Shown here piece after piece: positions 3,854-64,000 of a DNA stretch of 64,000 nt. The notes beneath the pieces are model-generated. The model ran no database searches. It was given only the letters and a program-made list of their open reading frames with translations, and was not told where the DNA came from. Made by a program: the position numbers and the translations under genes. This DNA is from Candidatus Sumerlaeia bacterium. Lineage in GTDB: Bacteria; Sumerlaeota; Sumerlaeia; MVZB01. Location of the stretch: positions 38,615-102,614 of the forward strand of contig JBDKRG010000059.1 in NCBI GenBank assembly GCA_039683515.1, read 5' to 3'. Within the stretch, counting starts at the first letter, position 1. Each line of letters begins with the position of its first letter.

Positions 3854-4609
3854 TTACAAACGCCGGATCTGGTCGCGGCTGATGAACCCGGCGCCCTTAC
3901 CGCCGAACGAGATCATCGGCCAGTCCGGGTGCGTGCGCTCGTCGGTGATGTCGACGACCGTCCCGGCCTTGAGCTTCCACGTCTCGGTCGAGTTCTCGCT
4001 CGGGCCGGATCTCACGCTCCCCTCGGGCGAAACAATCACGCCGCGCCGAACCATGCATTCCTGATGATAATGACCGAACGCGAACGGCCACGCAACCGCC
4101 GCGACGACCGCCGCCGCGATCGCCGTCTTGCGCAGCGACAGCCGCAGCCGCGTCCCGCGCGGCCGCCACAGCGCCCATGCGCCCAGAAACAGCCCCGCCA
4201 CGCTCGCCCACGCCGCGATCGCGGTCCATTCGTTGCCGCTCATGAGCCAGTAGACCATGTTGAGCGGCGGCAGCGGCGTCAGCGCGATCTGCGTCTCGTA
4301 TTCGGGATCGATGATCGAAAGGTTCTGGCGCAGCATCCGGTCGCGGGGCGCGAACTGGAGCGCCTGCAGGTAGCGCCACTGGGCGAGCCCGCGGTCGCCG
4401 AGATGGGCATAGGCCGTGCCCAGGTTGTAGAGAAGCCGCGGGTCGTGCGGCGCCTGCTCGATGAGCTGCTCGTAGATTTCGGCCGATTCCTTGTAGTTCT
4501 GGGCCGTGAACGCCTTGTTCGCGCGCTCGAGAAGCTGCTCCTCGCCGGTCGCGGCCCACGCGGCCGACGAAAGCATCAAGGCCATGATCATTGCAGCCAG
4601 CCGCCTCAT
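3854..4609 (-). CDS. BatE-like protein (TPR repeats, TM helix, C-terminal SH3-like domain)
   Basis: 251 aa. Has a signal/TM N-terminus, a TPR-like segment (YNLGTAYAHLGD...), a second TM segment and an SH3-like tail (WKLKAGTVVDITDE...). ATG at 4609 overlaps the batD stop by 4 nt (ATGA). The 874-aa ORF in the track is the same frame extended upstream into an Arg-rich artefact. Confidence 0.65.
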   Translation of the reverse strand: MRRLAAMIMALMLSSAAWAATGEEQLLERANKAFTAQNYKESAEIYEQLIEQAPHDPRLLYNLGTAYAHLGDRGLAQWRYLQALQFAPRDRMLRQNLSIIDPEYETQIALTPLPPLNMVYWLMSGNEWTAIAAWASVAGLFLGAWALWRPRGTRLRLSLRKTAIAAAVVAAVAWPFAFGHYHQECMVRRGVIVSPEGSVRSGPSENSTETWKLKAGTVVDITDERTHPDWPMISFGGKGAGFISRDQIRRL

Positions 4610-24811: not shown

Positions 24812-25030
24812 AAACAAAAAAGCAAAACACGAAACTCACGAAAAGAAACCACGAAAGCACACGAAAACAAATCATGATCTCTGATTATTTTCGTGCTTTT
24901 TCGTGATCTTTATTGCGTGCGTTTCGTGTTTGAATTTCTCTGCTTCTCTGCTTATCTCCGCATCTCGGCGACAAAATCTTTTTCGTGTATTTTCGTGATC
25001 TTTATTTCGTGCGTTTCGTGTTTGAATTTT
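24812..25030 (-). repeat. dispersed CACGAAA-array repeat element, copy 1 (reverse orientation, with internal ~91-bp tandem duplication)
   Basis: Runs of cacgaaa/ttcgtg heptamers, plus the reverse complement of ttgtcgccgagatgcggagataagcagagaagcagagaa. The unit tttcgtgatctttat(t)tgcgtgcgtttcgtgtttgaattt occurs twice (24891-24935 and 24982-25026). The second unit supplies the last codons and stop of the thiE-like gene. Confidence 0.7.
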
Positions 25031-26039
25031 TCATCAGCTTTTTAATCGCCCCGGCCGGGTCGGGCGACTTGCAGATGTGCGCGATCATCGCGTAGCACTC
25101 GAACCCGTTCGCAACCAGCTCGCCCACGTTGTCGCCGGCGATCCCGCCGACGGCCACCGCCGGAATCCCCCGCGCGGCCTTGCGCATCCGCCCCGCTTTT
25201 TCGACCCCGAGCACCGGCGCGTGGTCGGCCTTGGATCCGGTCGCGAACACCGGGCCAATCCCGATGTAGTCGGGCTTTTCGCGCAGCGCGGCCGCAAGCT
25301 GGCTCCGGTTGTGCGTCGACTTGCCGACCAGCACGCGCCCGCCGACGATCTCGCGCGCGTCGGCGACCGGCAGGTCGCTCTGGCCGAGGTGAACGCCGTC
25401 GGCCCCGGCCAATTTCGCGATGTCGGGGCGGTCGTTGACGATGAACAACGTCTGCGAGCCGCCCGTGATCTCGCGGATGCGCCGCGCCAGTTCCAGGAGC
25501 GGCCCGCCGTCCATGTTCTTGGCCCGGAGCTGGACCGCGCCAACCTTGAGCCGCACCGCGATCCCGGCGAGCTTCTCGTAGCCGATCGCGGGGTCGGTCA
25601 GGATCAGATACAAGCCCTTGAGGCGCGCGGCATTTCCGGTCCGGACGAACAGCGGCACGACCAGCGCCTCGAGCTGATACGCCTCGTAACGCATCGCCTT
25701 GGCGCGCGCGACGGCTTCGGGATATCCAAGCTTCGCCATCTCTTCAAGGACGCGCAGCGATTCCTGCACGCGCCCGAACGACGCCCCCAGGATCGCGGCC
25801 TGATCGGTGCGGCGCAGCGGCTCCTTCACGCGGACGCGGCCGATGTCGCCGTCGCTGTCGCGCGCGTCGAGCACCTCGCGCGGGAACAGTTTCCGCAAAT
25901 CGTTCACGCCGTGGCGCAGCCCCTTGAGCCGCGTCGAAAGCGCCGTGTCGTTCAGCCCGAACCGGCAGAAATCCTCGATCACCCGCAGCCCCTCGCCGAG
26001 CCGGTCCAGATTGGCGTCAATGATCCGATATTCCATCAT
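25002..26039 (-). CDS. thiamine-phosphate synthase-like protein with ~140-aa N-terminal extension
   Basis: The C-terminal 200 aa match the ThiE fold motifs (LYLILTDP..., VQLRAK..., IGIGPVFATGSK, VAVGGI). The N-terminal domain is unassigned. Confidence 0.65.
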   Translation of the reverse strand: MMEYRIIDANLDRLGEGLRVIEDFCRFGLNDTALSTRLKGLRHGVNDLRKLFPREVLDARDSDGDIGRVRVKEPLRRTDQAAILGASFGRVQESLRVLEEMAKLGYPEAVARAKAMRYEAYQLEALVVPLFVRTGNAARLKGLYLILTDPAIGYEKLAGIAVRLKVGAVQLRAKNMDGGPLLELARRIREITGGSQTLFIVNDRPDIAKLAGADGVHLGQSDLPVADAREIVGGRVLVGKSTHNRSQLAAALREKPDYIGIGPVFATGSKADHAPVLGVEKAGRMRKAARGIPAVAVGGIAGDNVGELVANGFECYAMIAHICKSPDPAGAIKKLMKNSNTKRTK

Positions 26040-26147
26040 GCGTGCAAATCCCTCCGAACTGGCATTTTATCGAGTCACCTGTTTGACCGCCAGCCTTTCG
26101 TGCTCGTGCCGATGCAGTAGCCCGAGCGTGAGCGAGGGCTTTCGTGC

Positions 26148-26162
26148 TCGTAATCGTAATCG
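26148..26162. repeat. CGATTACGATTACGA motif (reverse orientation) in divergent thi promoter region
   Basis: tcgtaatcgtaatcg preceded by ctttcgtgctcg. Same 21-mer as 12742-12762. Confidence 0.7.
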
Positions 26163-26231
26163 AAACTCGAAGAAATCATCATCTCTCCCCCCGCTCCAAT
26201 TCATTGACGTTTCCAAATCCGGACTTTAATA

Positions 26232-26366
26232 TATGGGGACTGGGGAGCTCCACGTAGGGGCTGAGAGGGCGGTAGGCCGCCGACCCATAAAACCTGATCC
26301 GGGTAATGCCGGCGTAGGGACGCACACCGATCGTTCAGCGAGCCTCCCACGCCGGGAGGTTTTTCG
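26232..26366 (+). promoter_or_regulatory. TPP (THI-box) riboswitch with intrinsic terminator expression platform
   Basis: Aptamer: ggggactggggagc...ggggctgagagggc...gacccataaaacctgatccgggtaatgccggcgtaggga (THI-element consensus CUGAGA...ACCUGAUC.GG.UAAU.CC.GCGUAGGGA). It is followed by the hairpin agcctcccacgccgggaggt plus tttttcg. Located directly upstream of the thiS-thiF fusion gene. Confidence 0.85.
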
Positions 26367-26367
26367 T

Positions 26368-27192
26368 TTGGCCTCAGCCAACGCCACCATCCAGATTTAC
26401 ATCAACGAGCAGCCGCGGCGGATCTTGAGCGGCCTCTCGCTCATGGAACTGCGCGACGCGTTCAAGCCGGCGGCCGACATCATGATCCACAACGGCCACC
26501 CCATGCAGTCCGACGTCGAGCTCGCCGAGGGCGACCGCGTCGTGCTGATCAGGCGCGGCGAAATCCCCCCCGCCGACGAACTCGAGGCGCTCCTGGTCTC
26601 GCGCCACGGCCCCGGGATCCACGAAAAAATCAAGAACGCCACCATCGGCATCGCCGGCTGCGGCGGGCTCGGCAGCGCGGTGGCCGTCACGCTCGCGCGG
26701 CTCGGCGTCGGCGCGCTGCGGCTCGTCGATCACGACGTCGTCGAGCCGAGCAACCTCAATCGCCAGCAGTTTTTCATCGACCAGATCGGCCGGATGAAGA
26801 CCGACGCGCTGGCCGAAAATCTGAAGCGGATCAATCCGTACGTCAAAACCGAGGCGATCCTGGCGCGCCTGACGCGCGACAACATCGCCGCGACGTTCGC
26901 CGGCTGCGCCGTGGTGGCCGAGTGCTTCGACGACCCCGCCGCCAAGCGCGACATGACGATCGCGATGCGCCGCGACCTGCCGGCCGTCCCGCTCGTCACC
27001 GTTTCGGGGATCGCCGGAGCCGGACCGTCCGAGGCGATTCGCATCCGCAAGGTCATGGACAACGTCTGGCTCGTGGGCGACGGCGAGACCGCCGCCGAGC
27101 CCGGCCGCGGCCTTCTCGCCCCGCGCGTGGCGGTCGCCGCCGGCCACCAGGCCAGCGTGATTTTGCGGATCTTATTGGGCGAGGAATCCTGA
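26368..27192 (+). CDS. thiF: ThiS-like ubiquitin-fold domain fused to ThiF/MoeB-type adenylyltransferase
   Basis: N-terminus ATIQIYINEQ...GDRVVLIRRGEI is a beta-grasp ThiS-like domain. It is followed by the Rossmann motif GIAGCGGLGS and the E1-like core. Probable TTG start at 26368 after GGAGG (the track frame extends back to 26233 through the riboswitch). Start uncertain. Confidence 0.7.
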   Translation: MASANATIQIYINEQPRRILSGLSLMELRDAFKPAADIMIHNGHPMQSDVELAEGDRVVLIRRGEIPPADELEALLVSRHGPGIHEKIKNATIGIAGCGGLGSAVAVTLARLGVGALRLVDHDVVEPSNLNRQQFFIDQIGRMKTDALAENLKRINPYVKTEAILARLTRDNIAATFAGCAVVAECFDDPAAKRDMTIAMRRDLPAVPLVTVSGIAGAGPSEAIRIRKVMDNVWLVGDGETAAEPGRGLLAPRVAVAAGHQASVILRILLGEES

Positions 27193-27392
27193 TGGAAATT
27201 AAAGTCAACGGCGAGCCGCGCCGGATCGAGCCGGGGATGACGATCGTGCAACTGCTCGGCGAGCTCGGCCTCGAGCCGCTCCACCTCGCGATCGAACACA
27301 ACGGCGACATCGTCGATGAAACCTCCATCGCCGGCATCGACCTCAAAGCTGGCGACACGCTGGAGATCATCAGGTTCGTCGGTGGCGGGTGA
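27192..27392 (+). CDS. thiS: sulfur-carrier protein ThiS
   Basis: 66 aa ending ...RFVGGG (C-terminal Gly-Gly). TGATG overlap with the thiF stop. Confidence 0.8.
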   Translation: MEIKVNGEPRRIEPGMTIVQLLGELGLEPLHLAIEHNGDIVDETSIAGIDLKAGDTLEIIRFVGGG

Positions 27393-27397
27393 ACGAA

Positions 27398-28045
27398 ATG
27401 AAGAATATCGGTTTAATCTCATTGCTTGTCATCATCGCCGCAGGATGCAAATCCAACGGACCGTACTGGCGGAGCCGCGGCCATGACCTCACGGACATCG
27501 TTACGCTGACAGTCGGGGTAGGCGCCGGCGCAAAGGTCATGGTTGGCCCTTTTCATGTTGGTTTACTGGGCTGCGGTGATGTTTATGGAATACGAGATGG
27601 GGTCATCATACCCCACAACATGGAGGACTCCTCCGACATCGATGATTTCATCTTCCCGCTCGGCCCCATTGCCCCTGCAATCCTTCGCAACCCGCCTATT
27701 TTCGGATTCAGCGCGTTGCCCTGCAGAACATGCGATCAGGGTATGATGACGCATTGTTTTCCTTTGTTTTCTCTCCCCGAACCGAATTTCCACGAAGGCA
27801 AACCCGCATGGTGCGGAGGTGAGGGACCATTTTATAAACCCGTTCTGATCCATAACAATGAACATGCCCTGCAGTACTTGACCCAGATCGAAGTGGTTGG
27901 GGGACTTGTTGGCACAGTGCGCGTAGGTGTTAATCCCGGCGAACTCGTTGATTTCATTGTCGGGATCGCAGACCGGGATATTTATGGCGATGATAATGTG
28001 AAGAAGGATAGCGATAATGAGACAGCAGAAAAAACTGGTCATTGA
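27398..28045 (+). CDS. lipoprotein of unknown function embedded in thi operon
   Basis: [17 protein letters not shown] lipobox. Noticeably lower GC than its neighbours. The 3' end overlaps the thiG start by 29 nt. Confidence 0.5.
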
Positions 28046-28802
28046 CTCGATCGAGTTCACGTCGCGGCTGTTTATCGGCACGGGCAAGTTCGCCTCGGCG
28101 CAGGCGATGGCCGATGCCGTGCTGGCTTCCGGGAGCGAGCTCGTCACCGTCGCGCTGCGCCGCGTCGACCTCAAGAATCCGCACGACCCGATGCTCGAGG
28201 CGCTCGACTTCAGCAAGTACCGGCTGCTGCCGAACACCTCCGGCGCGCGCGACGCCGAGGAGGCCGTGCGGCTTGCGAAACTGGCGCGGGCGGCGACGAA
28301 AACGAACTGGGTCAAGCTCGAGGTGACGCCCGATCCGTATTATCTGCTCCCCGATCCGGTCGAGACGCTGCGCGCGGCCGAGGAACTCGTCAAGCTCGGC
28401 TTCGTCGTCCTGCCTTACATCAACGCCGACCCGGTCCTGGCCAAGCGCCTCGAGGACGCCGGCTGCGCGACCGTCATGCCGCTGGCCGCGCCGATCGGCT
28501 CCAACCGCGGCCTCAAGACGCGCGACCAGGTCGCCATCATCATCGAAAACGCGGGCGTGCCGGTCGTCGTCGACGCCGGCCTCGGCATGCCGAGCCACGC
28601 CGCGGAGGCGATCGAGCTCGGCGCCGACGCCGTGCTCGTCAACACCGCCATCGCCATCGCCGAGGACCCGGTCGCCATGGCCGAGGCGTTCAAGCTCGCC
28701 GTCATCGCCGCCGAGAAAGCGCGCGAGGCCGGCCCCGGCGGCGAAAGCCGCCTCGCAAGGGCGTCGAGCCCGCTGACGGGGTTTCTGAGGGAGAATGAAT
28801 AG
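28017..28802 (+). CDS. thiG: thiazole synthase
   Basis: Collinear with ThiG throughout ([12 protein letters not shown]..., LPNTSGA..., [14 protein letters not shown]..., [14 protein letters not shown]..., AVLVNTAIA). Confidence 0.9.
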
Positions 28803-28839
28803 TTCAACCACGGAAGGCCTGGCGCGGCGAGCCGCAACC

Positions 28840-29145
28840 AAACAACAAGACAGAAATGCGGGTCACGAAATACACGAAAGGAAACACGAAAAACCACGAA
28901 AACCTATTCTTGTCGCCGAGGGGCAGAGTCAGGCAGAGATGCAGAGAAATACTCGAAGACAGGAATGAACAGAAGGCAACGGAGGAAACGGAGGATTTCC
29001 TGGCGGATCATCTCTCGGTTGCCTTCGTTGCCTCCTGTTCAAAATCTTGCCAGAAAAACAAGATTCGGACGGATAGTAGTACGGAATACACGGAATCGAT
29101 TTTTTGTCGCAGAGATGCGGTATTGTGCAGAGGACGCAGAGAAGA
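28840..29145 (+). repeat. dispersed CACGAAA-array repeat element, copy 2 (with a second partial unit)
   Basis: cacgaaatacacgaaaggaaacacgaaaaaccacgaaaa, then ttgtcgccgaggggcagagtcaggcagagatgcagagaa...gaagacaggaatg...ggaggaaacgg...ctcggttgccttcgttgcctcc (internal inverted repeat), then a second ttgtcgcagagatgcgg...gcagagaagaatg. Located between thiG and thiH. Confidence 0.7.
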
Positions 29146-30267
29146 ATGAATTTTTACGAGCAGATTCAGAGCCTGAACTTGAATGAAATCCGGGAGAGGA
29201 TCGAGCGCGCTTCTTCGATGGACGTCGAGCGCGCGCTCGCCCGCGAGCACCTCGAAATCCACGATCTCGCCGCGCTCTTTTCGCCCGCGGCCGCCCCTTT
29301 CATCGAGGAGCTCGCCCAGCGCAGCGCCGCGCTCACCGAGCGCCGCTTCGGCCGCGTCATCCAGCTCTACGCACCGCTTTACGTCTCCAACGAGTGCGTC
29401 AACAAGTGCGTCTACTGCGGATTTTCGCACGACGTCGGGATCCCGCGCCTCACGCTCACGGTCGAGCAGGCGGTCGCCGAGGCCGACGCGATCGCGCGCG
29501 AAGGTTTCCGGCACATCCTGCTCGTCGCAGGCGAGGACCGCCGCCATGTCAGCGTCCCCTACCTCGCCGAGATCGTGCGCCGACTCAACGACAGGTTCGC
29601 CGCGATCGCGATCGAGATCCAGCCGCTCAATGAAGACGAATACCGCGAGCTAGTCGCGGCCGGCGTCGACGGCCTCGCGATCTACCAGGAGACCTACGAC
29701 GAGGCACTCTACAAGACGCTCCACCCAGCCGGCCCCAAGCGCAATTACAAGGGGCGGCTCGAGGCGATCGAGGCGGGCGGCCGCGCCGGCATGCGCGCCC
29801 TCGGCATCGGCGCGCTCCTGGGCCTCGGCGACTGGCGCTTCGAGGCGGTGATGGTCGCCATGCACGGCCGCCACCTGGCGCGCCGGTTCTGGCGCAGCCG
29901 CGTGGCGATCAGCTTCCCGCGCATCCGCGGCAACGCGCACATGTTCCGACCCGAGCGCCTGCCGACCGACGCCGACCTCGTCCAGATGATCTGCGCGATG
30001 CGGCTGGTGCTGCCCGACGCCGAGCTGGTCATGTCGACGCGCGAAAACGCGAAGCTGCGCGACCGGCTCATCGGCCTCGGCATCACGCGCACGAGCGCCG
30101 GCAGCAAGACCAACCCCGGCGGCTACCAGATGGACGAAGCGATGGACAGCGGCGAGCAGTTCGCCGTCAGCGACCCGCGCCCGGCCGCCGAAGTCGCCGC
30201 GGCCATCGCCGCGCGCGGATTCGAACCGGTCTGGAAAGACTTCGACCGCAGCCTGGCCAAGTGCTGA
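29146..30267 (+). CDS. thiH: 2-iminoacetate synthase (tyrosine lyase), radical SAM
   Basis: Radical-SAM cluster motif NECVNKCVYCGF. Collinear with ThiH through to the C-terminus (…QFAVSDPRPAAEVAAAIAARGFEPVWKDFD). Confidence 0.9.
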   Translation: MNFYEQIQSLNLNEIRERIERASSMDVERALAREHLEIHDLAALFSPAAAPFIEELAQRSAALTERRFGRVIQLYAPLYVSNECVNKCVYCGFSHDVGIPRLTLTVEQAVAEADAIAREGFRHILLVAGEDRRHVSVPYLAEIVRRLNDRFAAIAIEIQPLNEDEYRELVAAGVDGLAIYQETYDEALYKTLHPAGPKRNYKGRLEAIEAGGRAGMRALGIGALLGLGDWRFEAVMVAMHGRHLARRFWRSRVAISFPRIRGNAHMFRPERLPTDADLVQMICAMRLVLPDAELVMSTRENAKLRDRLIGLGITRTSAGSKTNPGGYQMDEAMDSGEQFAVSDPRPAAEVAAAIAARGFEPVWKDFDRSLAKC

Positions 30268-30291
30268 TCATCAAGACCGCGCCTTGGCGGT

Positions 30292-30912
30292 TTAAAAATG
30301 ATCCATGCCAATCCGCTCGAGGATGCGCGCGACGGCCGCCGCGGGATCGGGCCGGCCGAAGACGCTTCGGATCGCGGCGATGCCGTACGCCCCGGCCCGC
30401 ATCACTTCCCCGATCCGCTCGGGCCCGATCCCGCCGAGCGCGATCACGGGCGATTGCGTTTTCCCGGTCAACTCGCGCAGCGGCTCCAGCCCGAGCGGAC
30501 GGCCCTTGCCCGGCGTCTCATAAATCGGGCTGAGCGTCACGTAATCGGCGCCGTCCGCGAACGCGTCGAGCGCCTCCCGGACCGAATGCGCCGACCAGCC
30601 GATGACGGCGCCCTCGCCCAGGGCCGCGCGCGCCTCGGCGATCGCCGGGCCGTTCGCGCCGAGGTGGATCCCATCGGCGCCGAGCATCCGCGCCAGCCCG
30701 ATCCGGCGATTGACGATCAGCTGCGCGCCGCAAGCCGTCGTCAGCGGCCGCAGCCAGCGGCATGATTCGAACAAATCGGCGTCGCTCACGGCCGATTTCT
30801 CGCGCAGCATGATCGCCGCCCGCCCGCCCCCGAGCGCCTGCATTACGATCGACTGGCAATCGTGTCGCGAAAAGAAACCCGGCGGCGTGATGGCGATCAG
30901 GCGAGCGATCAT
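30292..30912 (-). CDS. thiE: thiamine-phosphate synthase
   Basis: 206 aa with canonical ThiE motifs (AITPPG..., IMLREK, DGIHLG, YVTLSPIYETPGK, VIALGGI). Confidence 0.85.
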   Translation of the reverse strand: MIARLIAITPPGFFSRHDCQSIVMQALGGGRAAIMLREKSAVSDADLFESCRWLRPLTTACGAQLIVNRRIGLARMLGADGIHLGANGPAIAEARAALGEGAVIGWSAHSVREALDAFADGADYVTLSPIYETPGKGRPLGLEPLRELTGKTQSPVIALGGIGPERIGEVMRAGAYGIAAIRSVFGRPDPAAAVARILERIGMDHF

Positions 30913-31889: not shown

Positions 31890-32783
31890 CTACGCGCCGA
31901 CCGGCGTCGGCGCGACGGAACCGCCGCGCAGCGTTCTTGCGAATCCGACCAGATGACCCAGAGTATCACAAAACGCCGCGTAGCGCATTTGCTGGCGAAT
32001 CTCGCGGGTCAGCTCGTGGCCGGCCACGACCAGCGCGACCCCGGTCTCCTCGGCCGTGGCGGCCAGCGTGTCGTACTGCTTGACGAAGGACGGGGGGGCC
32101 GAGACCTGCCCGACCGCGAGCCAGAAGAGCCTCGGGCGCAGGTCGCGCAGCAGCTCGCTGAGCGAACCCAGCGGCGCCTCGCACCCCAGCGACTCCGTCC
32201 GCCACCCGATCTCGCGCAGCGAGACGTCCATCATCGCCGTGGTCACGCCGAGCAACCGCTCGCCATGCATGCCGCAGCCGATCGCCAGCGAGGCCGTCTC
32301 GGCCGGGCGCTGCAGGCTCAGCCGCAACTCCCCGATCCAGCGCTCGATCATCTGCACCATGCGCATCTGCTGGTAGGGCTTGATCCGCCCCTGCGCGAAG
32401 GACTGCTCGAGATCGAGCAGGATCGGCGAGAGGGCCTTGTCGAAAATATCGCGCGCCTTCATGCCGGCCATGAACAGGTTCAGGCCGACCCGGCGGAAAC
32501 TCTCCTCGTCGCCCTCGAGCAGGGCCCGCAGCATCAGCTTGCGGCAGCGCTCGATGGCCAGGTTGCTGGTGGCCGTGGCCGGCGGCATGCCGAGCAGGTC
32601 CGGCCTCAGCAGCGGGTGGCCGCTTTTGAGCAGATACTGGATGACGCCGCTGACCGGCAGCCGGCGGTGGCCGCCCACGGTCCGGATCGTCGGGATCAAT
32701 CCCTTGTCGCACCACCGTTTGAGCGATGCGTCGCTGACGCCAAGCGCCATGGCCACTTGCCGTGTCGTAAGATGTTTAATCAT
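31890..32783 (-). CDS. MerR-family transcriptional regulator with C-terminal B12-binding-like domain (CarH/LitR type)
   Basis: N-terminal HTH LTTRQVAMALGVSDASLKRWCDKGLI. C-terminal Rossmann-like B12-binding-type domain. ATG at 32783 preferred over the track start 32813 (no ribosome-binding site there). Confidence 0.6.
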   Translation of the reverse strand: MIKHLTTRQVAMALGVSDASLKRWCDKGLIPTIRTVGGHRRLPVSGVIQYLLKSGHPLLRPDLLGMPPATATSNLAIERCRKLMLRALLEGDEESFRRVGLNLFMAGMKARDIFDKALSPILLDLEQSFAQGRIKPYQQMRMVQMIERWIGELRLSLQRPAETASLAIGCGMHGERLLGVTTAMMDVSLREIGWRTESLGCEAPLGSLSELLRDLRPRLFWLAVGQVSAPPSFVKQYDTLAATAEETGVALVVAGHELTREIRQQMRYAAFCDTLGHLVGFARTLRGGSVAPTPVGA

Positions 32784-33167
32784 AGGGGTGATCTCTTTTC
32801 TACGGTCGATCATATTGAATTGATCGATTTATACCACCTTCCGCCGTGTCTGTAAATACCCTATTTGATCTTTGTGTCGTAATTTGATGCTGGAGCGGTG
32901 TTGCTCGGATCTTATTTATTCTCAGTGCCATACAACACAATAAAGCCTTCTTTCGAAGCCCGGGAATCAATCGGATTTCATGACATAAATAATACTAAAT
33001 GAATATGGCACATTGAACGATTTGCACGAATTGCGAGCCGCGCCGTGGAGGGGACTTGAACCACCTGGCGTGCCGAACGGCCCCGCCTTTCCCTTTTTCC
33101 GATGCAAAAACCGACCGCTATGATAAATTTTCAGCGGTATTGAACCCAACAAGGGCCGATTCGCCTG

Positions 33168-55573: not shown

Positions 55574-55831
55574 GGTTGGCCTCGTAAGATCGAAATTTCA
55601 CATCGTGCTTAAAATTATCGGCCATTCACCGCCGGTTGTAAATCAGTTTGCGCGGTGACGCGCCCGTGCATGCGGAGAGGCCGTCGGTGAGCGAGTTTGC
55701 TTTGACGCCACGGACCGGAAACGGTTCGGAAATGATACCGCAGGTGTTTTTAATTCGGTAATTCCTCGCTTACGCCGGGCTGCTGCATTAAAATCCGCAA
55801 CCCGGAGAAGTTCCGCTGAAGGTGGTTGAAT

Positions 55832-58800
55832 ATGAAAACAGTCTGCGGCGTCTTGTTCATCATGGCCTTGATTTTCCCGGTTCGCTCCCACGCGGCCGAT
55901 TCGCCGACGCGCGAGGAAATCATCCGGACGATCGTGACCGGCGGGGGATTGATCGCGGGCGACGACGGCCGGCCCACGCCAGAGGAAATCGAATTCCGCC
56001 GGCGGATGGAAAGGCGCAAGGACGACCTGCTGGCCAGCCGCCTCCCGGTCCGGCACCCGGCGCTCCTCGGCCAGGACGCCAAGGCGACCGCCCTGCGCAA
56101 TATCGAGCAGGCCGACTGGGCGCGCCGGATGGCCGATCGATGGAAACGGCTCGCCGACGAGCTGGTCGCGCAGCCCGCCGGGTGGATCGATTCGATGATC
56201 CCCGACGAGACGCCCTGGTATTCGTTCGGCATGACCTGCCCCAACTGCGTCGGAACAAAATCGCAGGAGGGCGCCGGCCTCAGGATGAAATGGGACTGGC
56301 ACAACCCCGATTCGTACACGTGCGGCTTCTGCGGCGAGCGGTTCCCGTCGGCGAAATACCCCGAGACCCAGGCGCTCGTCTGCCCGCGGATGGGGCAGAC
56401 GTTCACGTTCTACATGAACGACAAGGAGCGCGCCAACCCGGACGACCGCAGCGGCCGGCTCGCGTATCACTGGGTCGGCTCGCCGATGCACGCCAGCTTC
56501 ACCGGCGCGATCCGCGGCCGCAAGGTCACGTTCATGGTCGGCGCGCTCGACAGCCTGGCCTACACGTATTACCTCACCGGCGACCCGAAGTACGCCGTCA
56601 TGACGCGCGACGTCCTGCTGCGGCTCGCCCGCTCGTATCGCAACTGGCTGTATTACGACTGCCGCTGCTCGCTGGCCGACTGCGACCCGCTTTACGCGGC
56701 GTGGCATCCGAAGGAACTCAAGCTGGAGTGGAAACGCCAGCTCGCGGCCGACGATTTCAAGAACGACACGGCCGAAAAGGCCGCGTTGATGCAGGAGTAC
56801 TGGGGCTGCGGGCGCATCTATCCGGACTGCGACAACACGGAAGTCGTCTTTAACGTCGCGCAGGCCTACGACCTGACCTACGACGCCAGGGACGCGAATG
56901 GGAAGCCGGTGTGGAGCGCGGCCCAGAAACGGGCGGTCGAGCGCGACCTGCTGCTCGAGTGGATTTTCGGGTCGGAGTATTACCTCGGCGGGATCGGCCA
57001 GGCCAGGCTCCTCAACAACAAGGCCCCCCGCATTTACCACGCGATGGCCTCCGTGGCGCGCGTCATCGGCATCCCCACGATGGCCGATACCGCGCTGCGC
57101 GGCTACGAGGCGATTCGCGACCAGGCGTTCGGCTACGACGGCCTGAGCCATGAAAGCCCGAGCTACACGAACCAGTATCTGAATGAATTGGTGAAAATTC
57201 CCGAACGCTTGCACGATTTCGAGTGGCCGGAAGAATACGCGCAGCGCAGGAAGGCCGGCGATCTTTACCGGAACGACGAGCGGCTGCGCCTGCTCTATCG
57301 GTCTTCGTTCTGGGAATTGCAGGGCAACGCGACGGAGCCGCCGCTGTCCGACACCCACGTCGGCGGAACCGTCAGCCCGATCATCATCGAGCAGAGCGCG
57401 CGGCGATACCCGGAACTGATCGACGGCCGCATGGGGGCGCTCCTGCGTGGCGCCCGCGTCAGCTCGTATTCGCTCTTCAACGTCGGCGCCCGCGAGCCGC
57501 TGCGCAACGAGCCGCTCGAGCTGCCCGAGGTCTATTTCCCCGACTGGATGACGTCGATCTTCCGGCATGGGCGCGGCGACAACGAGGCCGTGCTGGCGAT
57601 GAGCTTCGGCCGCGAAGGCAGCCACCGCCACTACGACAACCTGGCGCTGTTTTACGCCGATGGCGGCAACACCATGCTTGCCGACCAGGGCTACGTGACC
57701 GACACGCCGATCAACAGGTGGCTGCAAAGCACAAAGAGCCACAACCTCGTGATCGTCGACGACCTCGAGCAAAGGTTCCGCTGGCCCGGGGATCCGCGCA
57801 ACAAGGCGCCGCGCAAGCCGCGGCTCGAAATGATTTTCACCGGGCCGCGGCTGTCGGCGGTCGAGGCGTCGTCGGATGTTTACAGCCAGTGCGGGGATTA
57901 CCGGCGGCTGGTCGCGATGATCAAGGGCCCCGGCATGCGCACGTTCGCCGTCGATATCTTCCGCGTGAGCGGCGGCAAAAGGCAGGCCTATCAGCTCGTG
58001 AGCGAGCTGGCCGCGAGCGACTCCAAGAACGGGCGGCTCGAGTTCGAGGGCGTGACGTTGCCCGCCGAAAAACCGCTCCCCAATTTCGGCGCGAGCATCG
58101 CCGACGACGCGATGTTCGGGCTGCGCGACGAGCGCAAGGTCAAGGCGCCCACGAAACCATGGCAGGCGGTCTGGCGCGACGACAGCGGCGCGTATCGCTT
58201 CTGGAACCTGGGGGACGCCGATTTCGTCGCGGCCTACAACGGCCCCGGCCAGGAAACGCCGACCCCCGGCCGGCGCGCGCGGTTCCTCAACGTGATCCGC
58301 GAGGGCAACAATGTCGAGAGCACGTTCATCGGGCTGCACGAACCGGGCGCCCAAAACGCCGATTGGGTCGTCCAAAAGGCGCAGCGCCTGAAGACACCGA
58401 AAGCCGCCGGCCCCGACGCCGTCGCGCTCCTCATCGACACGGCGTGGGGCCAATACCTCGTCCTCAACGAATTCGCGGCCGAGGCGAAGGTCAAGGGCGT
58501 GAGCTTCCAGGGCAAGCTCGGCGTCTGGTGCAAGGAGCCCGGCGGCACCGAATGGATCGTCGCCTGCGGCGCGTCGACGTGCCGGGCCGGCAAGCTCGGT
58601 TTCGCCGGCAAGACCGCGATGTGGAACGATGAGGCCGCGATCACTTCGGCAGAGGAACTCAAGCCCGCGCACGCGCGGCCGGCCGACTGGCAGGACCCGC
58701 CGGCGGGCTGGCGGAATTACGTCCTGCTCAACGACGGCAAGAGCGACACGGGATTCCCGGTCGCGCGGACCGGCGCCGAAAACATCCGTGTCGGCATGTT

Positions 58801-58861
58801 CCCGCTGCCGAAGGAAGCCGGCGGATTCAGCCTGCCGTCGCTGAGCGTGGACGGGAAATAG
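55832..58861 (+). CDS. secreted heparinase II/III-like polysaccharide lyase family protein
   Basis: Signal peptide MKTVCGVLFIMALIFPVRSHA. Alpha/alpha-toroid-like N-terminal region. C-terminal …HRHYDNLALFYADGGNTMLADQGY… resembles the heparinase II/III C-terminal beta-sandwich. GAAGGTGG ribosome-binding site. Confidence 0.55.
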   Translation: MKTVCGVLFIMALIFPVRSHAADSPTREEIIRTIVTGGGLIAGDDGRPTPEEIEFRRRMERRKDDLLASRLPVRHPALLGQDAKATALRNIEQADWARRMADRWKRLADELVAQPAGWIDSMIPDETPWYSFGMTCPNCVGTKSQEGAGLRMKWDWHNPDSYTCGFCGERFPSAKYPETQALVCPRMGQTFTFYMNDKERANPDDRSGRLAYHWVGSPMHASFTGAIRGRKVTFMVGALDSLAYTYYLTGDPKYAVMTRDVLLRLARSYRNWLYYDCRCSLADCDPLYAAWHPKELKLEWKRQLAADDFKNDTAEKAALMQEYWGCGRIYPDCDNTEVVFNVAQAYDLTYDARDANGKPVWSAAQKRAVERDLLLEWIFGSEYYLGGIGQARLLNNKAPRIYHAMASVARVIGIPTMADTALRGYEAIRDQAFGYDGLSHESPSYTNQYLNELVKIPERLHDFEWPEEYAQRRKAGDLYRNDERLRLLYRSSFWELQGNATEPPLSDTHVGGTVSPIIIEQSARRYPELIDGRMGALLRGARVSSYSLFNVGAREPLRNEPLELPEVYFPDWMTSIFRHGRGDNEAVLAMSFGREGSHRHYDNLALFYADGGNTMLADQGYVTDTPINRWLQSTKSHNLVIVDDLEQRFRWPGDPRNKAPRKPRLEMIFTGPRLSAVEASSDVYSQCGDYRRLVAMIKGPGMRTFAVDIFRVSGGKRQAYQLVSELAASDSKNGRLEFEGVTLPAEKPLPNFGASIADDAMFGLRDERKVKAPTKPWQAVWRDDSGAYRFWNLGDADFVAAYNGPGQETPTPGRRARFLNVIREGNNVESTFIGLHEPGAQNADWVVQKAQRLKTPKAAGPDAVALLIDTAWGQYLVLNEFAAEAKVKGVSFQGKLGVWCKEPGGTEWIVACGASTCRAGKLGFAGKTAMWNDEAAITSAEELKPAHARPADWQDPPAGWRNYVLLNDGKSDTGFPVARTGAENIRVGMFPLPKEAGGFSLPSLSVDGK

Positions 58862-58884
58862 GCAAGCTGAACACTGATCGGAAA

Positions 58885-58999
58885 CCGAAAACGCGAAACC
58901 CCCGCCGGTGGTGAACCGACGGGGTTTTCGTATCTCTTTGAAACTCAAGTGGTGCCGGGAAGAGGTCTTGAACCTCCACACCCTTTCGGGTACAAGATT
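58885..58999. repeat. left direct repeat of islet (tRNA-Leu 3' half plus downstream terminator)
   Basis: ~115 bp matching 60746-60860 with a few mismatches. Confidence 0.8.
58950..58998 (-). pseudogene. partial tRNA-Leu copy (3' half: CCA end, T-arm, variable arm, 3' anticodon-stem strand)
   Basis: tggtgccgggaagaggTcttgaacctccacaccctttcgggtacaagat equals tRNA positions 60811-60859 with one mismatch. It diverges inside the anticodon loop. Confidence 0.8.
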
Positions 59000-59199
59000 C
59001 TTATATAAAAGCAGGACATTTCGTTACCGCAAGGTTCTCAACAAAGCGCACAATTTCCGGCCCAAATCCTAGACCGGGCGCGCGCGCCCGAAATCCCCAC
59101 CAACCCTTGGATTGTAAGGCCGCACAACAACCACGCGTGATGGACCGGCCCGCGACCGACGAACACTTGGTCTAATAACTATATACACGGCAATAAGCC

Positions 59200-59228
59200 T
59201 TGTATACACAACAGCTTTGGTGTATAAA
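59200..59228 (+). promoter_or_regulatory. sigma70-like promoter of islet operon
   Basis: TTGTAT, a 17-nt spacer, then TATAAA. About 50 nt upstream of ATG 59279. Confidence 0.4.
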
Positions 59229-59278
59229 TTTCCTGTTTTATTCGTTTTTGTACCACTTGTATCGCAGGGCGGTCCATA

Positions 59279-59965
59279 ATGACTATATCAGATTCAACAG
59301 AATCGCTGAAAAGTCATCCTGGTTTTGGAGGAGCGTTGCTCGCCGATAGCGCGACACAAACAGATACTGGGAAAGTTAATCTCCAAGGAATATTCACAAT
59401 GTTCTTGGCTTGGGGTTTTCCATGCTCAAGAACATGGTTTCTGACATTTACAGCATTTGATGTGCCCAACTACGACACATCGGTCAGTATTGGTGTGCGG
59501 AAAGCCGGATCGAGTTCAATTTCAAAACTGTCTAACGTGAAGGTTTCAGAGGGAAGTAAAGGTCCTTCCACTGTTAGTGTTCAGTTAAGGCATCGTTTCA
59601 ATTCGGCAGGAAGATATGAATTAGTGTGTACATTTCGTAAATCAGTAAAAAAATTGAGGATCCCGTTTGAAGTGCGGTGTAGAGAGTGGCCAGAGTTCTC
59701 AGAGGAAGAAATTGCTTTCTCACGTAAAGATTCTCATATCCCAATGAGAATTCGAGCCAATGTCCAATGCAAAAAATGCTCACATGCCTATATCTTTGAA
59801 GAGGCAGTCTTACAACAGAAATCGAAGGGGGGCATTCAGCGATTTCCCACTAACGGTCGATTTAAATGTGAGGAATGTGGTCATACAATGAATTTGCTAG
59901 ATATCCAAGGGCAAATGAGAGCCTCTCTAAAAGAACTTGTGCGCAATGCCATGAAAAAGGACTGA
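59279..59965 (+). CDS. hypothetical protein with C-terminal CxxC…CxxC zinc-ribbon (islet gene A)
   Basis: 228 aa. Beta-rich N-terminal ~160 aa, then CKKCSHAY…(29 aa)…CEECGHT. AT-rich codon usage unlike the flanking genes. Confidence 0.55.
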   Translation: MTISDSTESLKSHPGFGGALLADSATQTDTGKVNLQGIFTMFLAWGFPCSRTWFLTFTAFDVPNYDTSVSIGVRKAGSSSISKLSNVKVSEGSKGPSTVSVQLRHRFNSAGRYELVCTFRKSVKKLRIPFEVRCREWPEFSEEEIAFSRKDSHIPMRIRANVQCKKCSHAYIFEEAVLQQKSKGGIQRFPTNGRFKCEECGHTMNLLDIQGQMRASLKELVRNAMKKD

Positions 59966-59968
59966 GTC

Positions 59969-60670
59969 ATGTTCAGTCCATACCACAAACTCACGAATTG
60001 TCCACGGTTGGAAAGGCATATAGCAACGCTTAGGGCAGCGGGGAATGTTGCCGACGATGTGTTTCAAAATCACAATCGCTATCACTATGCACTGATACAT
60101 AAATTGAAATGTGCCCGAACCAGTTTTGACCGTCTCCAAAATGAGCTCACGGATACTTCGCCAGAGCAAATTGTGAGCGATTCAGGAGAGTTTCTATACT
60201 CGATCAATGCGTGCATCGATAGTTTCTTCTACACGAGCGGTAGCGCGATGGATATCTTAGCCAGGGAAGTCCTCACCTATTTTTCAATTGCGATGCCTAA
60301 TAAAGTCTACTATAGAACAGCTCGAGAAGAACTCACAACTCATCGACCTGGTGACGTTTTGATTTCAAAGCTTGCAGACCCTACATGGAAGAGCGAGTTT
60401 TCCAACTACAGAAACGCTTTAACACATGAGGTCCTTATTGCCGGTGTCTTTTCGATAAATTTTGTGATGGATGGAGCAACACAACGCAAGACAATCGTTT
60501 TCCCTCTCCCAGATGATCCTCGAACTGATCCTCAGGCGAGAACCTTCAGGCAGAATAAAGATGTTCAACTTTACTGTGATCGAACCTTACGCAGATTGTT
60601 GTCATTGATCAACACGATCTATGGTGATCTGTGTTCTCGAATTCAATCGAACCAATCCCTTCCTCTTTAA
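59969..60670 (+). CDS. hypothetical alpha-helical protein with R-x4-H motif (possible HEPN-like; islet gene B)
   Basis: 233 aa. Start is 3 nt after the gene A stop. YRNALTHEV matches the minimal HEPN Rx4-6H signature. No family recognised with confidence. Confidence 0.5.
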   Translation: MFSPYHKLTNCPRLERHIATLRAAGNVADDVFQNHNRYHYALIHKLKCARTSFDRLQNELTDTSPEQIVSDSGEFLYSINACIDSFFYTSGSAMDILAREVLTYFSIAMPNKVYYRTAREELTTHRPGDVLISKLADPTWKSEFSNYRNALTHEVLIAGVFSINFVMDGATQRKTIVFPLPDDPRTDPQARTFRQNKDVQLYCDRTLRRLLSLINTIYGDLCSRIQSNQSLPL

Positions 60671-60745
60671 AAAAAAAGATAGTTGCATCTTGCGGATAAT
60701 AAATCCGTATCTCTTGCCAACACCGCGGAATGTACCGGAAGCGGA

Positions 60746-60860
60746 CCGAAAACGCGAAAACCCCGCCGGTGGTGAACCGACGGGGGTTTCGTATCTTCAA
60801 GAAACTCAAGTGGTGCCGGGAAGAGGACTTGAACCTCCACACCCTTTCGGGTACAAGATC
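60746..60860. repeat. right direct repeat of islet (part of intact tRNA-Leu plus its terminator)
   Basis: Matches 58885-58999. Confidence 0.8.
60748..60788 (-). terminator. rho-independent terminator of tRNA-Leu
   Basis: In the minus-strand transcript: cccccgtcggttcaccaccggcgggg hairpin followed by ttttcgcgtttt. Duplicated at 58888-58928. Confidence 0.6.
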
Positions 60861-60897
60861 CTTAGTCTTGCGCGTCTGCCAGTTCCGCCATCCCGGC
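60811..60897 (-). tRNA. tRNA-Leu (type II, long variable arm); anticodon loop CUAAGGA reads as AAG by position
   Basis: GCCGGGATGGCGGAACTGGCAGACGCGCAAGACTAAGGATCTTGTACCCGAAAGGGTGTGGAGGTTCAAGTCCTCTTCCCGGCACCA. 7-bp acceptor stem, GG in the D-loop, GTTCAAGTC T-loop, encoded CCA. Near-collinear with bacterial tRNA-Leu. Confidence 0.8.
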
Positions 60898-61291
60898 ACC
60901 TTGGCGAGCCTTGCGGCACGCCCCAAAACTCCACCTAACCAAATTCCGCCGACGCTCTCAACCATTTTTTGAAGAGAATTTTTACTCCAGGCAACAAGGG
61001 GTTGAGAATAGCGCGTTTGGAGCGCGAAATAAATCGGCGGGGGCGGTTGACGCGGGCGTTGATGTCTTCGCGCCACGGCCCATCGATTTCCGGTTGCTCG
61101 AACAGATTTTAATCCCCTCGACCGATATCCGCCCTGGATCCGGCACAATCCACCGAGTCGGGAATGCCTTTTCTTCGCGTTCCGGGCGTCCAGGCGCCCC
61201 TGAATTCCATGTAAAAAACGATTGAATTTTTGTAATCTGCGTCATCGGACGCTCAGGGGCGATTTTCAGTCGATTTTGAAATTCCGGGGGA

Positions 61292-64000
61292 ATGCGGTCG
61301 ATGCGATCCAGCCACGCCACTTCCAGGGGCGCCTTGCGCCTGCCGATTTTGATTGTCCTCGCGCTGACGCTCGTTCAGCCGGCGCCCGCGCTCACGCCGC
61401 CGCCGGCCGGCGGCATCGAGGCCTATCGCCAGGACGGCACCTTCGAGAAGCGCCGCGCGTTCGCCGAGAAGCTCGGCAATCACCTGATCAACCCCGCGCT
61501 CCTCAAGAGCAAGCTCGCCGGGCTTTCGGGGGGGCCGGCGCTCCAGGCGCTCCCCTACAAGCCCGGCCTCGCCTCCAAGGGGACGCAGCGCGTGCTCGTC
61601 TTCGCGGTCGACTTCCCCGATTACCCCGCCAAGCTCGACACGCCGACGATGTCCAACCGCCTGTTCAGCACGACGATCACCGAGAACCAGCCCTACGAAA
61701 GCATGGCGAAATATTACCGGCGCTCCTCGTACAACCAGCTCACGATCACCGGCGAGGTCATGGCGCGCCACCGCGCCGCGCACAACCGCAGCTACTACAC
61801 CGACAACGCCGGCACGCTCATCGCCGAGCTCTTCAACGCCTACAACTACAGCAAGGACTTCTCCGTCTACGACAACGACGGCGACGGCAAGATCGATTAC
61901 TTCATCATCTTCTGGACCGGCAAGGACGAGGGCTGGGGCAGCTTCTGGTGGTCGTGGAACAACAGCATCAACGACCCCACGTGGAAGGTCGACGGCAAGA
62001 CGATCGGCAACTTCAGCTGGATCGCCGAGGACAACTGCCTGACCGATTACGGCTACGACATGGACCCGCGCACGGCGATCCACGAGACCGGCCACGCGCT
62101 CGGCCTGCCCGACTACTACGATTACGACGACAAGGTCGGCCCCAAGGGCGGGCTCGGCGGGACCGACATGATGGACAACGGCTGGCACGACCACAACGCG
62201 TTCAGCAAGTGGCTCCTGGAATGGATCGCGCCGACCGTCGTCGGCGGCACGGGGACGCTTTACAAATACCCGCAAATGCGCCCGTCGTCGCTCTACGCCG
62301 ACGCCGTCGCGATCATGCCGGGGATGACCGCGACCAACCCGTTCACCGAGTTCTACCTGGTGCAGAACCGCGTGCGCGGCTCGAAGACGACGAGCAACGA
62401 CTACACGCTCCCCGGCGACGGCGTCATCGTCTGGCACGTCGACGCGCGGCTCAACTCGACGGGCAACGGCTTCAAGTACGACAACAGCACCACCGACCAC
62501 AAGCTGCTCAAGCTGATGGAGGCCGACGGCGGCGACCACATCGAGAAAAACATGGGCTTCGCCACGGCCGATTTCTACACGCCCGGCTCGTACCTGTCGC
62601 CGGTTTCGACGCCGACGAGCGCCAACTACGCCGGGGCGCGCACGGGCGTGACCGTGTTCAACATCGCCCCCGTCACGTTCAGCTGGCCGCCGGTGGCGGC
62701 CGGGACGTGCGGCGTCCAGTTCATGAACGCCGGTTCGTCGACGAACTGGATCGGCATCGGCGAGGCGGTCGACAACAACAACCTGGTCTGGGCGACGGGC
62801 GCAAGCAGCAGCGCGCTGACGTGGTTCGGCCAGAAATCGATCTACAAAATCGGCGGCGACGCCGCGCAGTGCAGCTCGCCCGGCAATTCGCAGTACGTCA
62901 ACCTGGACGCCCGGCTGACCGGCCCCGGCCCGCTGACGTTCCAATGGAAGGTCTCGTCGGAATCCGGCAAGGACTGGCTCGAGTTCTGGCTCGACGGCGT
63001 GCGCCAGGACCGGATCAGCGGCTCGACGAACTTCGCGCAGAAAGCCTACAACCTGACGGCCGGGTCCCACACGATCCGGTGGAAATACGTCAAAGACGCC
63101 GCCGGGGCGGCCGGCTACGATTGCGGCTGGGTCGACGCCGTCGATTACTCGTACGTGCCGTTCGCAGTGGCCGTCGACAACAACTCGACAACGTGGACGC
63201 AGTCCGGCAGCATGCAGTGGTTCGGCGAGGACAAGGAATACACCTTCGGCGGCAGCGCGGCGCGCTCGGGCCCGGTCGCCGACGGCCAGGACTCGACGTT
63301 CAAGACCACCGTGGCCGGCCCCGGCTGGGTCGATTTCGCGTGGAAGGTCTCGTCGCAAAGCGGCGACATCCTGCGCCTGCGCAAAAACGGCGTCAACATC
63401 GCCAACATCAGCGGCGAGGTCGACTGGACGACGAAAACCCTCTACCTGGATTCGGGCTACAACATCATCGAATGGGCGTATATCAAGAACAGCTCGGGCG
63501 CGGCCGGCCAGGACTGCGGCTGGGTCGATCACATCCGGTTCAGTTCGCCGGCCATCAATCGGCACACGCTCGCGCAAGGGGTCGACAACAGCGTGCTGGC
63601 CTGGACGAGCATCCCGTATAATGCGTGGCGATACGTAAGCTCGCCCAACCACGACGGCGCCGACGCCGCCGCGTGCAGCATGTCGGTCAAGGGCCAGACC
63701 GCCACGCTGCGCACGGTCGTGACCGGCCCCGGCACGCTCACCTACTGGTACAAGGACGATCCGACGAATTCCTCCGGATGGCTCGATGTTTTCATCGACG
63801 GCAAGTATGCCGGCAGCGGCACCGACACGTCATGGAATCAAAAATCCCTCACGATCGCCGAGGGCCTCCATGTTGTCGATTGGGTCTATACGATCGAAGG
63901 AAACAATGTCGATACGTTCGCCATCGACCAGGTCGAATACACGCCGGCCAACCTCGATTTGGTCGAGGCGCTCGACAACCCGCAGATCAAGTGGGAAACG
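61292..64000 (+). CDS. secreted M6-family (InhA-like) zinc metalloprotease with repeated C-terminal beta-sandwich modules, 3'-partial
   Basis: Not in the ORF track because it has no stop within the window. Signal peptide ALRLPILIVLALTLVQPAPA. HExxH motif AIHETGHALGLPDYYDYDD. At least four ~120-aa repeats (…FQWKVSSESG.DWLEFWLDG…GYDCGWVDAV.YS). The two 799-aa track ORFs here are wrong frames. Confidence 0.7.
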   Translation, partial: MRSMRSSHATSRGALRLPILIVLALTLVQPAPALTPPPAGGIEAYRQDGTFEKRRAFAEKLGNHLINPALLKSKLAGLSGGPALQALPYKPGLASKGTQRVLVFAVDFPDYPAKLDTPTMSNRLFSTTITENQPYESMAKYYRRSSYNQLTITGEVMARHRAAHNRSYYTDNAGTLIAELFNAYNYSKDFSVYDNDGDGKIDYFIIFWTGKDEGWGSFWWSWNNSINDPTWKVDGKTIGNFSWIAEDNCLTDYGYDMDPRTAIHETGHALGLPDYYDYDDKVGPKGGLGGTDMMDNGWHDHNAFSKWLLEWIAPTVVGGTGTLYKYPQMRPSSLYADAVAIMPGMTATNPFTEFYLVQNRVRGSKTTSNDYTLPGDGVIVWHVDARLNSTGNGFKYDNSTTDHKLLKLMEADGGDHIEKNMGFATADFYTPGSYLSPVSTPTSANYAGARTGVTVFNIAPVTFSWPPVAAGTCGVQFMNAGSSTNWIGIGEAVDNNNLVWATGASSSALTWFGQKSIYKIGGDAAQCSSPGNSQYVNLDARLTGPGPLTFQWKVSSESGKDWLEFWLDGVRQDRISGSTNFAQKAYNLTAGSHTIRWKYVKDAAGAAGYDCGWVDAVDYSYVPFAVAVDNNSTTWTQSGSMQWFGEDKEYTFGGSAARSGPVADGQDSTFKTTVAGPGWVDFAWKVSSQSGDILRLRKNGVNIANISGEVDWTTKTLYLDSGYNIIEWAYIKNSSGAAGQDCGWVDHIRFSSPAINRHTLAQGVDNSVLAWTSIPYNAWRYVSSPNHDGADAAACSMSVKGQTATLRTVVTGPGTLTYWYKDDPTNSSGWLDVFIDGKYAGSGTDTSWNQKSLTIAEGLHVVDWVYTIEGNNVDTFAIDQVEYTPANLDLVEALDNPQIKWET

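Follow-up and report, generated by a model that had tools for sequence, protein, structure and literature searches.

A low-GC islet between two copies of a tRNA-Leu 3′ part

In a 64-kb stretch of a Candidatus Sumerlaeia genome (contig JBDKRG010000059.1; hereafter the window, whose positions serve as coordinates throughout), a short islet carrying two genes lies between long direct repeats, each of which contains the 3′ part of a tRNA-Leu gene. The sole tRNA of the window, on which ARAGORN and Rfam agree, is an intact tRNA-Leu(AAG) on the minus strand (60811-60897; 87 nt with encoded CCA; Rfam RF00005, 51.6 bits), and it is the presumptive target of the integration discussed below. The repeats span 120 nt, at 58884-59003 (R1, the left copy) and 60745-60864 (R2, the right copy), with a start-to-start spacing of 1861, and both are read here on the minus strand. 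R2, attL-like, comprises a trailer that includes a terminator hairpin (60745-60810), together with the 3′ portion by which the live tRNA is made complete (60811-60864); R1, attR-like, consists of a displaced tRNA-Leu 3′ part (58950-59003, canonical positions 33-76) and a 66-nt trailer (58884-58949), and starts 23 nt past the stop codon of a heparinase II/III-like gene (55826-58861). With the intact tRNA on the right and the displaced 3′ part on the left, the 120-nt repeat confirms the attL/attR-like geometry that an earlier reading, made from the sequence alone, had proposed for this locus. That reading had found a real repeat and a real displaced tRNA half, while setting the length of the former at 115 nt and the end of the latter at 58998; the half in fact runs to 59003, across one mismatch at 58999.

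R1 and R2 agree at 112 of 120 positions (60/66 across the trailer, 52/54 across the tRNA portion), the mismatches, given as R1/R2, falling at 58899 (C/A), 58925 (T/G), 58936-58939 (CTTT/TCAA), 58966 (T/A) and 58999 (T/C). Two sub-patterns of the repeat that we tested occur exactly twice each in the window against none expected (100 dinucleotide-preserving shuffles), and the repeat is therefore neither a chance match nor a dispersed repeat. A common dispersed repeat unrelated to tRNA-Leu, which the sequence-only reading had named as fatal to its own proposal, is thus ruled out within the window, where there are just two copies, both tied to the tRNA. Homology between R1 and R2 has its boundary between canonical tRNA positions 32 and 33: identity begins at U33, and position 32 and everything 5′ of it differ. 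One of the two differences between the tRNA part of R1 and the live tRNA falls within the anticodon loop, at canonical position 37 (58999 T / 60860 C). The inner junctions are reproducible, since an independent assembly, Logan contig L021 (run SRR15035646), is 100% identical to window positions 58969-60857 across both of them; it breaks at each end within an exact 32-mer common to R1 and R2.

Beyond the tRNA 3′ end, both copies continue for 66 nt that include a GC-rich hairpin (about 58893-58931 in R1) stable on both strands, with folding energies on the tRNA strand of -31.6 kcal/mol in R2 (z -4.65) and -27.9 kcal/mol in R1. As a separate observation, the substitutions in this hairpin (58899/58925 in R1 versus 60760/60786 in R2) swap which strand has an intact TTTT tract: the four-T tract is intact on the plus strand of R1, after the heparinase-like gene, and on the minus strand of R2, after the tRNA. 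The swap could be a specialisation of a duplicated bidirectional terminator, or could be chance, as it involves two substitutions only.

The insert between the repeats (1741 bp, 59004-60744) has a GC content of 0.40-0.46, compared with 0.61-0.72 in its flanks and about 0.65 in the host, and its two open reading frames (ORF1 and ORF2) have GC contents at third codon positions (GC3) of 0.37 and 0.44, compared with about 0.8-0.96 in host genes (about 0.9). Because both measures lie far below host values, we regard the insert as foreign DNA, in keeping with the composition sought in islands at tRNA genes. Its content is simple: two plus-strand ORFs 3 nt apart and 349 nt of non-coding DNA, made up of a 275-nt leader and a 74-nt tail. 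The leader (59004-59278, plus strand) holds a 16-nt GC palindrome (CGGGCGCGCGCGCCCG; 59075-59090) and three TATACAC motifs, two in direct orientation (59182-59188 and 59203-59209) and one inverted (59220-59226); the palindrome and motifs could be the promoter/operator of the cassette, a former attP arm with integrase arm sites, or both. The tail is the plus-strand spacer from the ORF2 stop codon to R2 (60671-60744). The cassette has its closest relative on L017, a contig of 1690 nt that nearly matches the islet in extent and whose two proteins share 57% and 66% amino-acid identity with those of the islet; its leader is weakly similar to that of the islet, and a segment of the tail (60700-60722) is conserved there as well.

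The two cargo genes and their relatives

ORF1 (59279-59965, plus strand) encodes a protein of 228 amino acids with an N-terminal Ig-like β-sandwich, a four-cysteine zinc ribbon and a C-terminal helix, an architecture taken from a structure model with a predicted local distance difference test score (pLDDT) of 89.7. The β-sandwich corresponds to DUF6941, which matches residues 19-121 at 28.0 bits, just above the Pfam gathering cut-off of 27, and several relatives carry a precomputed DUF6941 assignment. The zinc-ribbon cysteines (C164, C167, C197 and C200) are invariant. The literature that we searched makes no mention of DUF6941. ORF1 as a candidate recombinase is ruled out, for it is a β-sandwich with a zinc ribbon and is ordinary cargo in other loci.

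ORF2 (59969-60670, plus strand), which begins 3 nt after the ORF1 stop codon, encodes a helical protein of 233 amino acids with a HEPN-like fold. It has both the helical bundle of HEPN proteins and their Rx4-6H motif, here R148-x4-H153 (RNALTH), whose arginine and histidine are invariant in 41 sequences. Among described HEPN families, DUF4145 included, we found no Pfam or NCBIfam match to ORF2, and the PDB gave no sequence match; one of the 41 relatives matches HEPN_Cthe2314 (E 0.016). Relatives of ORF2 number 143 at E <= 1e-3, nearly all of them 230-234 amino acids long, and derive from metagenome-assembled genomes named Cloacimonas, Bacteroidales, Planctomycetota and others, and so from several phyla; none was found in IMG/VR viral contigs. 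PADLOC-DB 2.0 contains no family for ORF1 or ORF2 at E <= 1, and sequence searches of the cargo proteins against PADLOC, PHROGs, NCBIfam and the PDB were all uninformative.

The two genes travel together. In all 8 other loci examined, an ORF1 homologue lies directly upstream of an ORF2 homologue (partner E values from 1e-59 to 1e-101) with an intergenic gap of -8 to +4 nt, and by this arrangement the pair is evidently a conserved operon. The neighbours of the module in these loci are repeatedly defence-island or mobile-element genes, tyrosine and serine recombinases included. In L003, a pair comprising a Gabija-like OLD-TOPRIM ATPase and a UvrD helicase, together with an HNH protein, lies just upstream of the module homologue (1143-5259), with a CI-type repressor in the region; these surroundings are those of a defence island or prophage. 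In L006 the module has type ISP/MmeI-like restriction-modification genes and an insertion sequence element as neighbours, and in L011 a DNA methylase, an NYN protein and an SNF2 helicase. The module adjoins a tyrosine integrase in L009, and in L001 it directly follows a tRNA-Asn(gtt) gene (193-268) and is itself followed by a stretch (2054-6308) encoding a 530-aa reverse transcriptase, a DUF2924 protein and a large serine recombinase, the recombinase lying 2.7 kb further on.

Within the stretches examined, none of the other loci has att-like repeats around the module; in L001, no tRNA-derived repeat occurs within the 10 kb examined, and the module likewise stands without tRNA repeats in L003, L005, L006, L009 and L011. 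These last five loci bear on a second finding that the sequence-only reading had counted against itself, namely the same two genes without flanking repeats in related genomes. The module is indeed found in that state; its presence elsewhere without tRNA repeats therefore makes it portable cargo, not the mobile agent, and leaves the interpretation as an island unrefuted. In L005, which is part of a 3-Mb chromosome, we observed that short tandem repeats bracket the module, with 22-nt units upstream (6587-6694) and perfect 21-nt units immediately downstream (8780-8884).

HEPN toxin-antitoxin pairs and RAZR serve as the analogies from which we infer an RNase function for the cargo, which is most likely a toxin-antitoxin or abortive-infection-type RNase system, with ORF2 as the predicted effector and ORF1 as its putative partner, either sensor or neutraliser.

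Recombinases near the islet and a parallel island in the same tRNA gene

No recombinase was found among the roughly 42 genes of the window that we screened against Pfam (39 GC3-supported host genes, the right-flank gene and the two cargo ORFs), 7 of the host ORFs being without a Pfam match at E <= 1e-6. The sequence-only reading had reported none within 5 kb, which agrees with our result for the 5 kb to the left of the islet; the window extends only 3.1 kb to the right, on the side that is 5′ of the tRNA and thus outside the island. Neither ORF1 nor ORF2 has a recombinase or transposase domain in Pfam, so the island, which holds these two ORFs only, has no integrase gene of its own. Searches of the window for integrase remnants by tblastn, with the integrases of L016 (described below) and L009 and the primase of L016, gave only matches at E > 0.5. 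The neighbours of the islet are housekeeping genes.

When metagenome contigs were scanned for exact matches to the 32-nt core, only two others came up, one of which, Ga0182027_10003246, has an integrase-bearing island in the same tRNA gene; viral contigs gave no exact match to this stretch of the tRNA half. We analysed two stretches of Ga0182027_10003246, L014 (1-3477) and L016 (1-13707), on either side of contig positions 3478-5825. An intact tRNA-Leu(aag), differing from the window tRNA by one D-loop base, is at L014 1896-1982, and a displaced tRNA 3′ part is at L016 8330-8385, about 12.2 kb downstream. Abutting the displaced copy is a P4-type tyrosine integrase of 432 amino acids (L016 6832-8130, minus strand; Phage_integrase 2.1e-34, Arm-DNA-bind_3 3.9e-12). 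A primase with Prim-Pol, PriCT_2 and DUF3987 domains (L016 34-2037), an LVIVD-repeat protein (L016 3816-6143) and an HTH_31 regulator (L014 2537-2845) complete the features identified; integrase and primase together are the gene set of a P4-like integrative element.

The repeat of this island starts at about canonical position 31-32, is identical at 56 of 56 positions in its tRNA part, and runs 111 nt past the tRNA with 87/114 identity. In our alignment its homology boundary falls at 30/31, with identity from position 31. An integrase-bearing element in a related organism thus uses the same tRNA site, with repeats that likewise extend well past the tRNA, which lends independent support to the earlier proposal of an attP-like site carrying sequence beyond the tRNA itself. 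The trailers of the two lineages are alike only in their first ~25 nt (a TTTCAAA...TACGAAAA box), and the copies within each lineage are homologous. About 1 kb of sequence after the displaced tRNA half in L016 is also low in GC (0.47-0.49).

Origin of the islet

Site-specific integration into tRNA-Leu(AAG) very likely gave rise to the islet, a small genomic island that, in our view, is now most likely an immobile remnant kept for its cargo. In tRNA genes, tyrosine integrases are recognised to cross over at three sublocations, namely the anticodon loop with the symmetric stem on either side of it, the T-loop and the 3′ end (PMC4383910; 10.1101/2020.11.02.365908), and anticodon-centred att sites are the commonest class among islands in tRNA genes (tDNA islands), accounting for 2083 of 3919 in Islander (PMC4383910). 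At our locus, an intact tRNA and a displaced fragment of the same tRNA stand in direct orientation on the same replicon, and their homology starts at one of these sublocations, the anticodon loop. The sequence-only reading was therefore right in seeing the geometry of integration at a tRNA gene; its placing of the event at the tRNA 3′ end is probably off, the likely crossover being at the homology boundary in the anticodon loop (32/33).

We infer the following course of events. A tyrosine integrase of the anticodon-loop-crossover kind would have recombined the chromosomal tRNA gene with the att site of an element, this site duplicating the tRNA from position 33 through its CCA terminus, along with about 66 nt of trailer that includes the terminator. 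The 5′ part of the host tRNA would have been completed by the element copy, R2, so that tRNA and terminator, the whole transcription unit, were restored, and the original host 3′ part with its trailer, R1, would have been displaced 1861 bp downstream, beside the heparinase-like gene. We assign R2 to the element and R1 to the host because a reciprocal crossover in the anticodon loop leaves the element copy contiguous with the tRNA 5′ part. As the element trailer is 91% identical to that of the host, the att region would go back to a tRNA-Leu locus in the same lineage or in a near relative. The simplest route would be that an element once excised imprecisely, carrying off the displaced tRNA half with host flank, and then re-integrated, a capture analogous to the formation of specialised transducing phages. 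The integrase may have been deleted or may never have been carried, and the islet would since have lost its mobility. In L009 and L001 the module sits at the edge of larger elements, and internal deletion could therefore leave just the module.

The sequence-only reading had offered a satellite mobilised in trans or decay as possibilities. Decay now appears somewhat likelier, because R1 and the live tRNA do not match throughout the anticodon loop (58999), where strand exchange presumably took place; the position-37 mismatch would hinder excision if the loop is the overlap region. In the integrase-bearing island of Ga0182027_10003246, by contrast, the tRNA parts are identical. On balance, we judge an immobile remnant roughly three times as probable as an active satellite.

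Several points weigh against the interpretation as an integration-derived remnant. The place of the crossover is suggested by the homology boundary but not proved by it. The islet contains no integrase pseudogene, excisionase or other remnant, so that deletion of an integrase is assumed, not seen. Neither an empty site nor an excised circle could be demonstrated: a scan of genome contigs with the heparinase-like flank gene gave only a 47%-identical Latescibacterota locus, which has no tRNA, an exact-sequence look-up of the flank protein matched nothing because its annotated start is different, and the nearest orthologues of the flank gene (79% identity; L019 and L020) are not syntenic and have no tRNA-Leu nearby. 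The metagenome scan, for its part, added just one more tRNA-Leu locus that is itself occupied. Finally, the arms of the islet show no significant similarity to those of the L014/L016 island by blastn (word size 7) or by shared k-mers, the single shared 10-mer being at chance level.

The strongest of the alternatives, although we think it unlikely, is that the islet is an active satellite resembling a cis-mobilizable element (CIME), a 1.86-kb unit that never had an integrase and is moved in trans by that of a larger tRNA-Leu island or of a phage. The islet is very compact, with two genes and little non-coding DNA between two intact att-like sites, as such a unit would be, and in a related organism the identical site is occupied by an island that has an integrase; but no integrase occurs among the genes screened in the 64 kb, and the sole known integrase-bearing island at the site lacks similarity to the islet in its arms. 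The TATACAC repeats of the leader could serve as arm-type binding sites. The L017 contig, nearly co-extensive with the islet and with the conserved 60700-60722 segment at its end, would suit a discrete mobile unit, yet Logan contigs break at any graph branch, which makes this co-extensiveness weak evidence. The mismatch between attL and attR in the anticodon loop (58999 T / 60860 C) would impede strand exchange if the loop is the overlap, and in other genomes the same module is ordinary cargo without tRNA repeats.

A more ambitious version, which we hold to be a little less probable again, would make the islet a live 1.86-kb satellite, with a ~470-nt att region containing the tRNA 3′ half and terminator, that borrows the integrase of larger tRNA-Leu islands among related Sumerlaeia and carries an undescribed anti-phage system composed of a zinc-ribbon sensor and a HEPN RNase. 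Were this version true, the trailer-carrying att site, which occurs independently in two islands, would be adaptive in giving the split tRNA gene its terminator back.

Duplication without an integrase seems to us very improbable. Both repeats might have been imported by homologous recombination, or a local 120-nt duplication might have preceded an unrelated insertion; lineage-specific trailers that are 91% identical are what exchange between close relatives would give, and no recombinase was found among the genes screened. Homologous import, however, merely shifts the question to the donor, and the inner boundary lies exactly in the anticodon loop, as it does again in the independent integrase-bearing island. 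Nor were transposase or terminal inverted repeats found, and we know of no target-site duplication that comes near 120 nt; a transposon with a target-site duplication is ruled out on all three counts.

An assembly artefact, in which a low-GC fragment of another organism was stitched in through the shared tRNA sequence, might be suspected from the source (a metagenome-assembled genome), from the sharply different composition of the insert and from the break of the Logan contig inside the repeat, but is hardly credible given that an independent assembly reproduces both inner junctions exactly, that both insert ends adjoin the host-specific trailer (found nowhere else in the window) and not the tRNA alone, and that 8 differences between the copies mark separate loci, not a collapsed repeat.

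Relation to known elements and systems

In its sequence, the islet shows what defines a genomic island integrated at a tRNA gene, save for the integrase gene. Like Islander-type and P4-like tRNA islands, it combines an intact tRNA with a direct, displaced 3′ fragment, sits on the 3′ side of the tRNA, shows homology that begins in the anticodon loop and is of foreign composition, and its element restores the gene that it splits (PMC4383910). Unlike them, it has no integrase and would fail the Islander integrase filter, its cargo is only 1.74 kb, and its repeat extends 66 nt beyond the tRNA, terminator included. As a genome feature it is nonetheless ordinary. Long repeats and integrase-less islands at tRNA genes are already documented: in Klebsiella, islands in tRNA genes have direct repeats of 15-221 bp, 27 of 162 lack an integrase, and the smallest with both integrase and direct repeats is about 3.5 kb (10.1101/2020.11.02.365908).

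In its layout, the islet also appears to have the structural features of a CIME-type element as known from the ICESt1/ICESt3 family, being bounded by attL- and attR-like sites and devoid of recombination or transfer genes (definition in PMC5704250 and PMC6323972), and the integrase of a related element could in principle move it. It departs from CIMEs in that its attL and attR differ inside the presumed overlap region, which makes their identity across that region doubtful; phylum and target are different, and the 64-kb window contains no cognate element.

A long imperfect duplication that keeps the target gene functional has a parallel in e14 and phage 21, which reportedly replace the 3′ end of icd in Escherichia coli with a diverged copy. 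Here, by contrast, the target is a tRNA gene, and the duplication reaches into the non-coding trailer and terminator.

The predicted cargo function draws on three further likenesses. As in HEPN/MNT, RnlA/LsoA and RAZR systems, a HEPN-like helical fold with an invariant Rx4H motif occurs in a small module with defence or mobile neighbourhoods. RAZR, a single-protein defence system, unites a divergent HEPN domain with a Cys4 zinc ribbon (PMC13017515); our module likewise pairs a Cys4 zinc ribbon with the HEPN part, although the two are on separate proteins. The partner of ORF2 differs from that in HEPN/MNT systems in having a DUF6941 β-sandwich, not an MNT nucleotidyltransferase. The uncharacterised DUF6941/zinc-ribbon and HEPN-like module is a reasonable candidate for a toxin-antitoxin or anti-phage system. 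For Sumerlaeota, a little-studied candidate phylum, these loci document tRNA-Leu(AAG) as an integration hot spot used at the anticodon loop, by elements that carry the tRNA trailer and terminator in their att region, an arrangement seen twice independently.

Other features in the window

At 31890-32813 (minus strand), 26 kb from the islet, lies a gene with native codon usage for a 307-aa protein with an N-terminal HTH_17 domain (Pfam 9.5e-09), and we found no link between it and the islet. A thiamine pyrophosphate (TPP) riboswitch (26231-26337, plus strand; Rfam RF00059, 74.5 bits) heads a thiamine biosynthesis cluster (25002-30912) whose genes encode ThiS/ThiF-like proteins, ThiG, a ThiH-like radical SAM protein, ThiE and a ThiD2/TMP-TENI protein. 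The right-flank gene (61280-64000, plus strand; GC3 0.92) runs off the window and has only weak Pfam matches, to Peptidase_M6 and CE2_N; internal direct repeats at 62757-63982, with a period of about 396-408 nt, correspond to repeated domains of ~135 amino acids.

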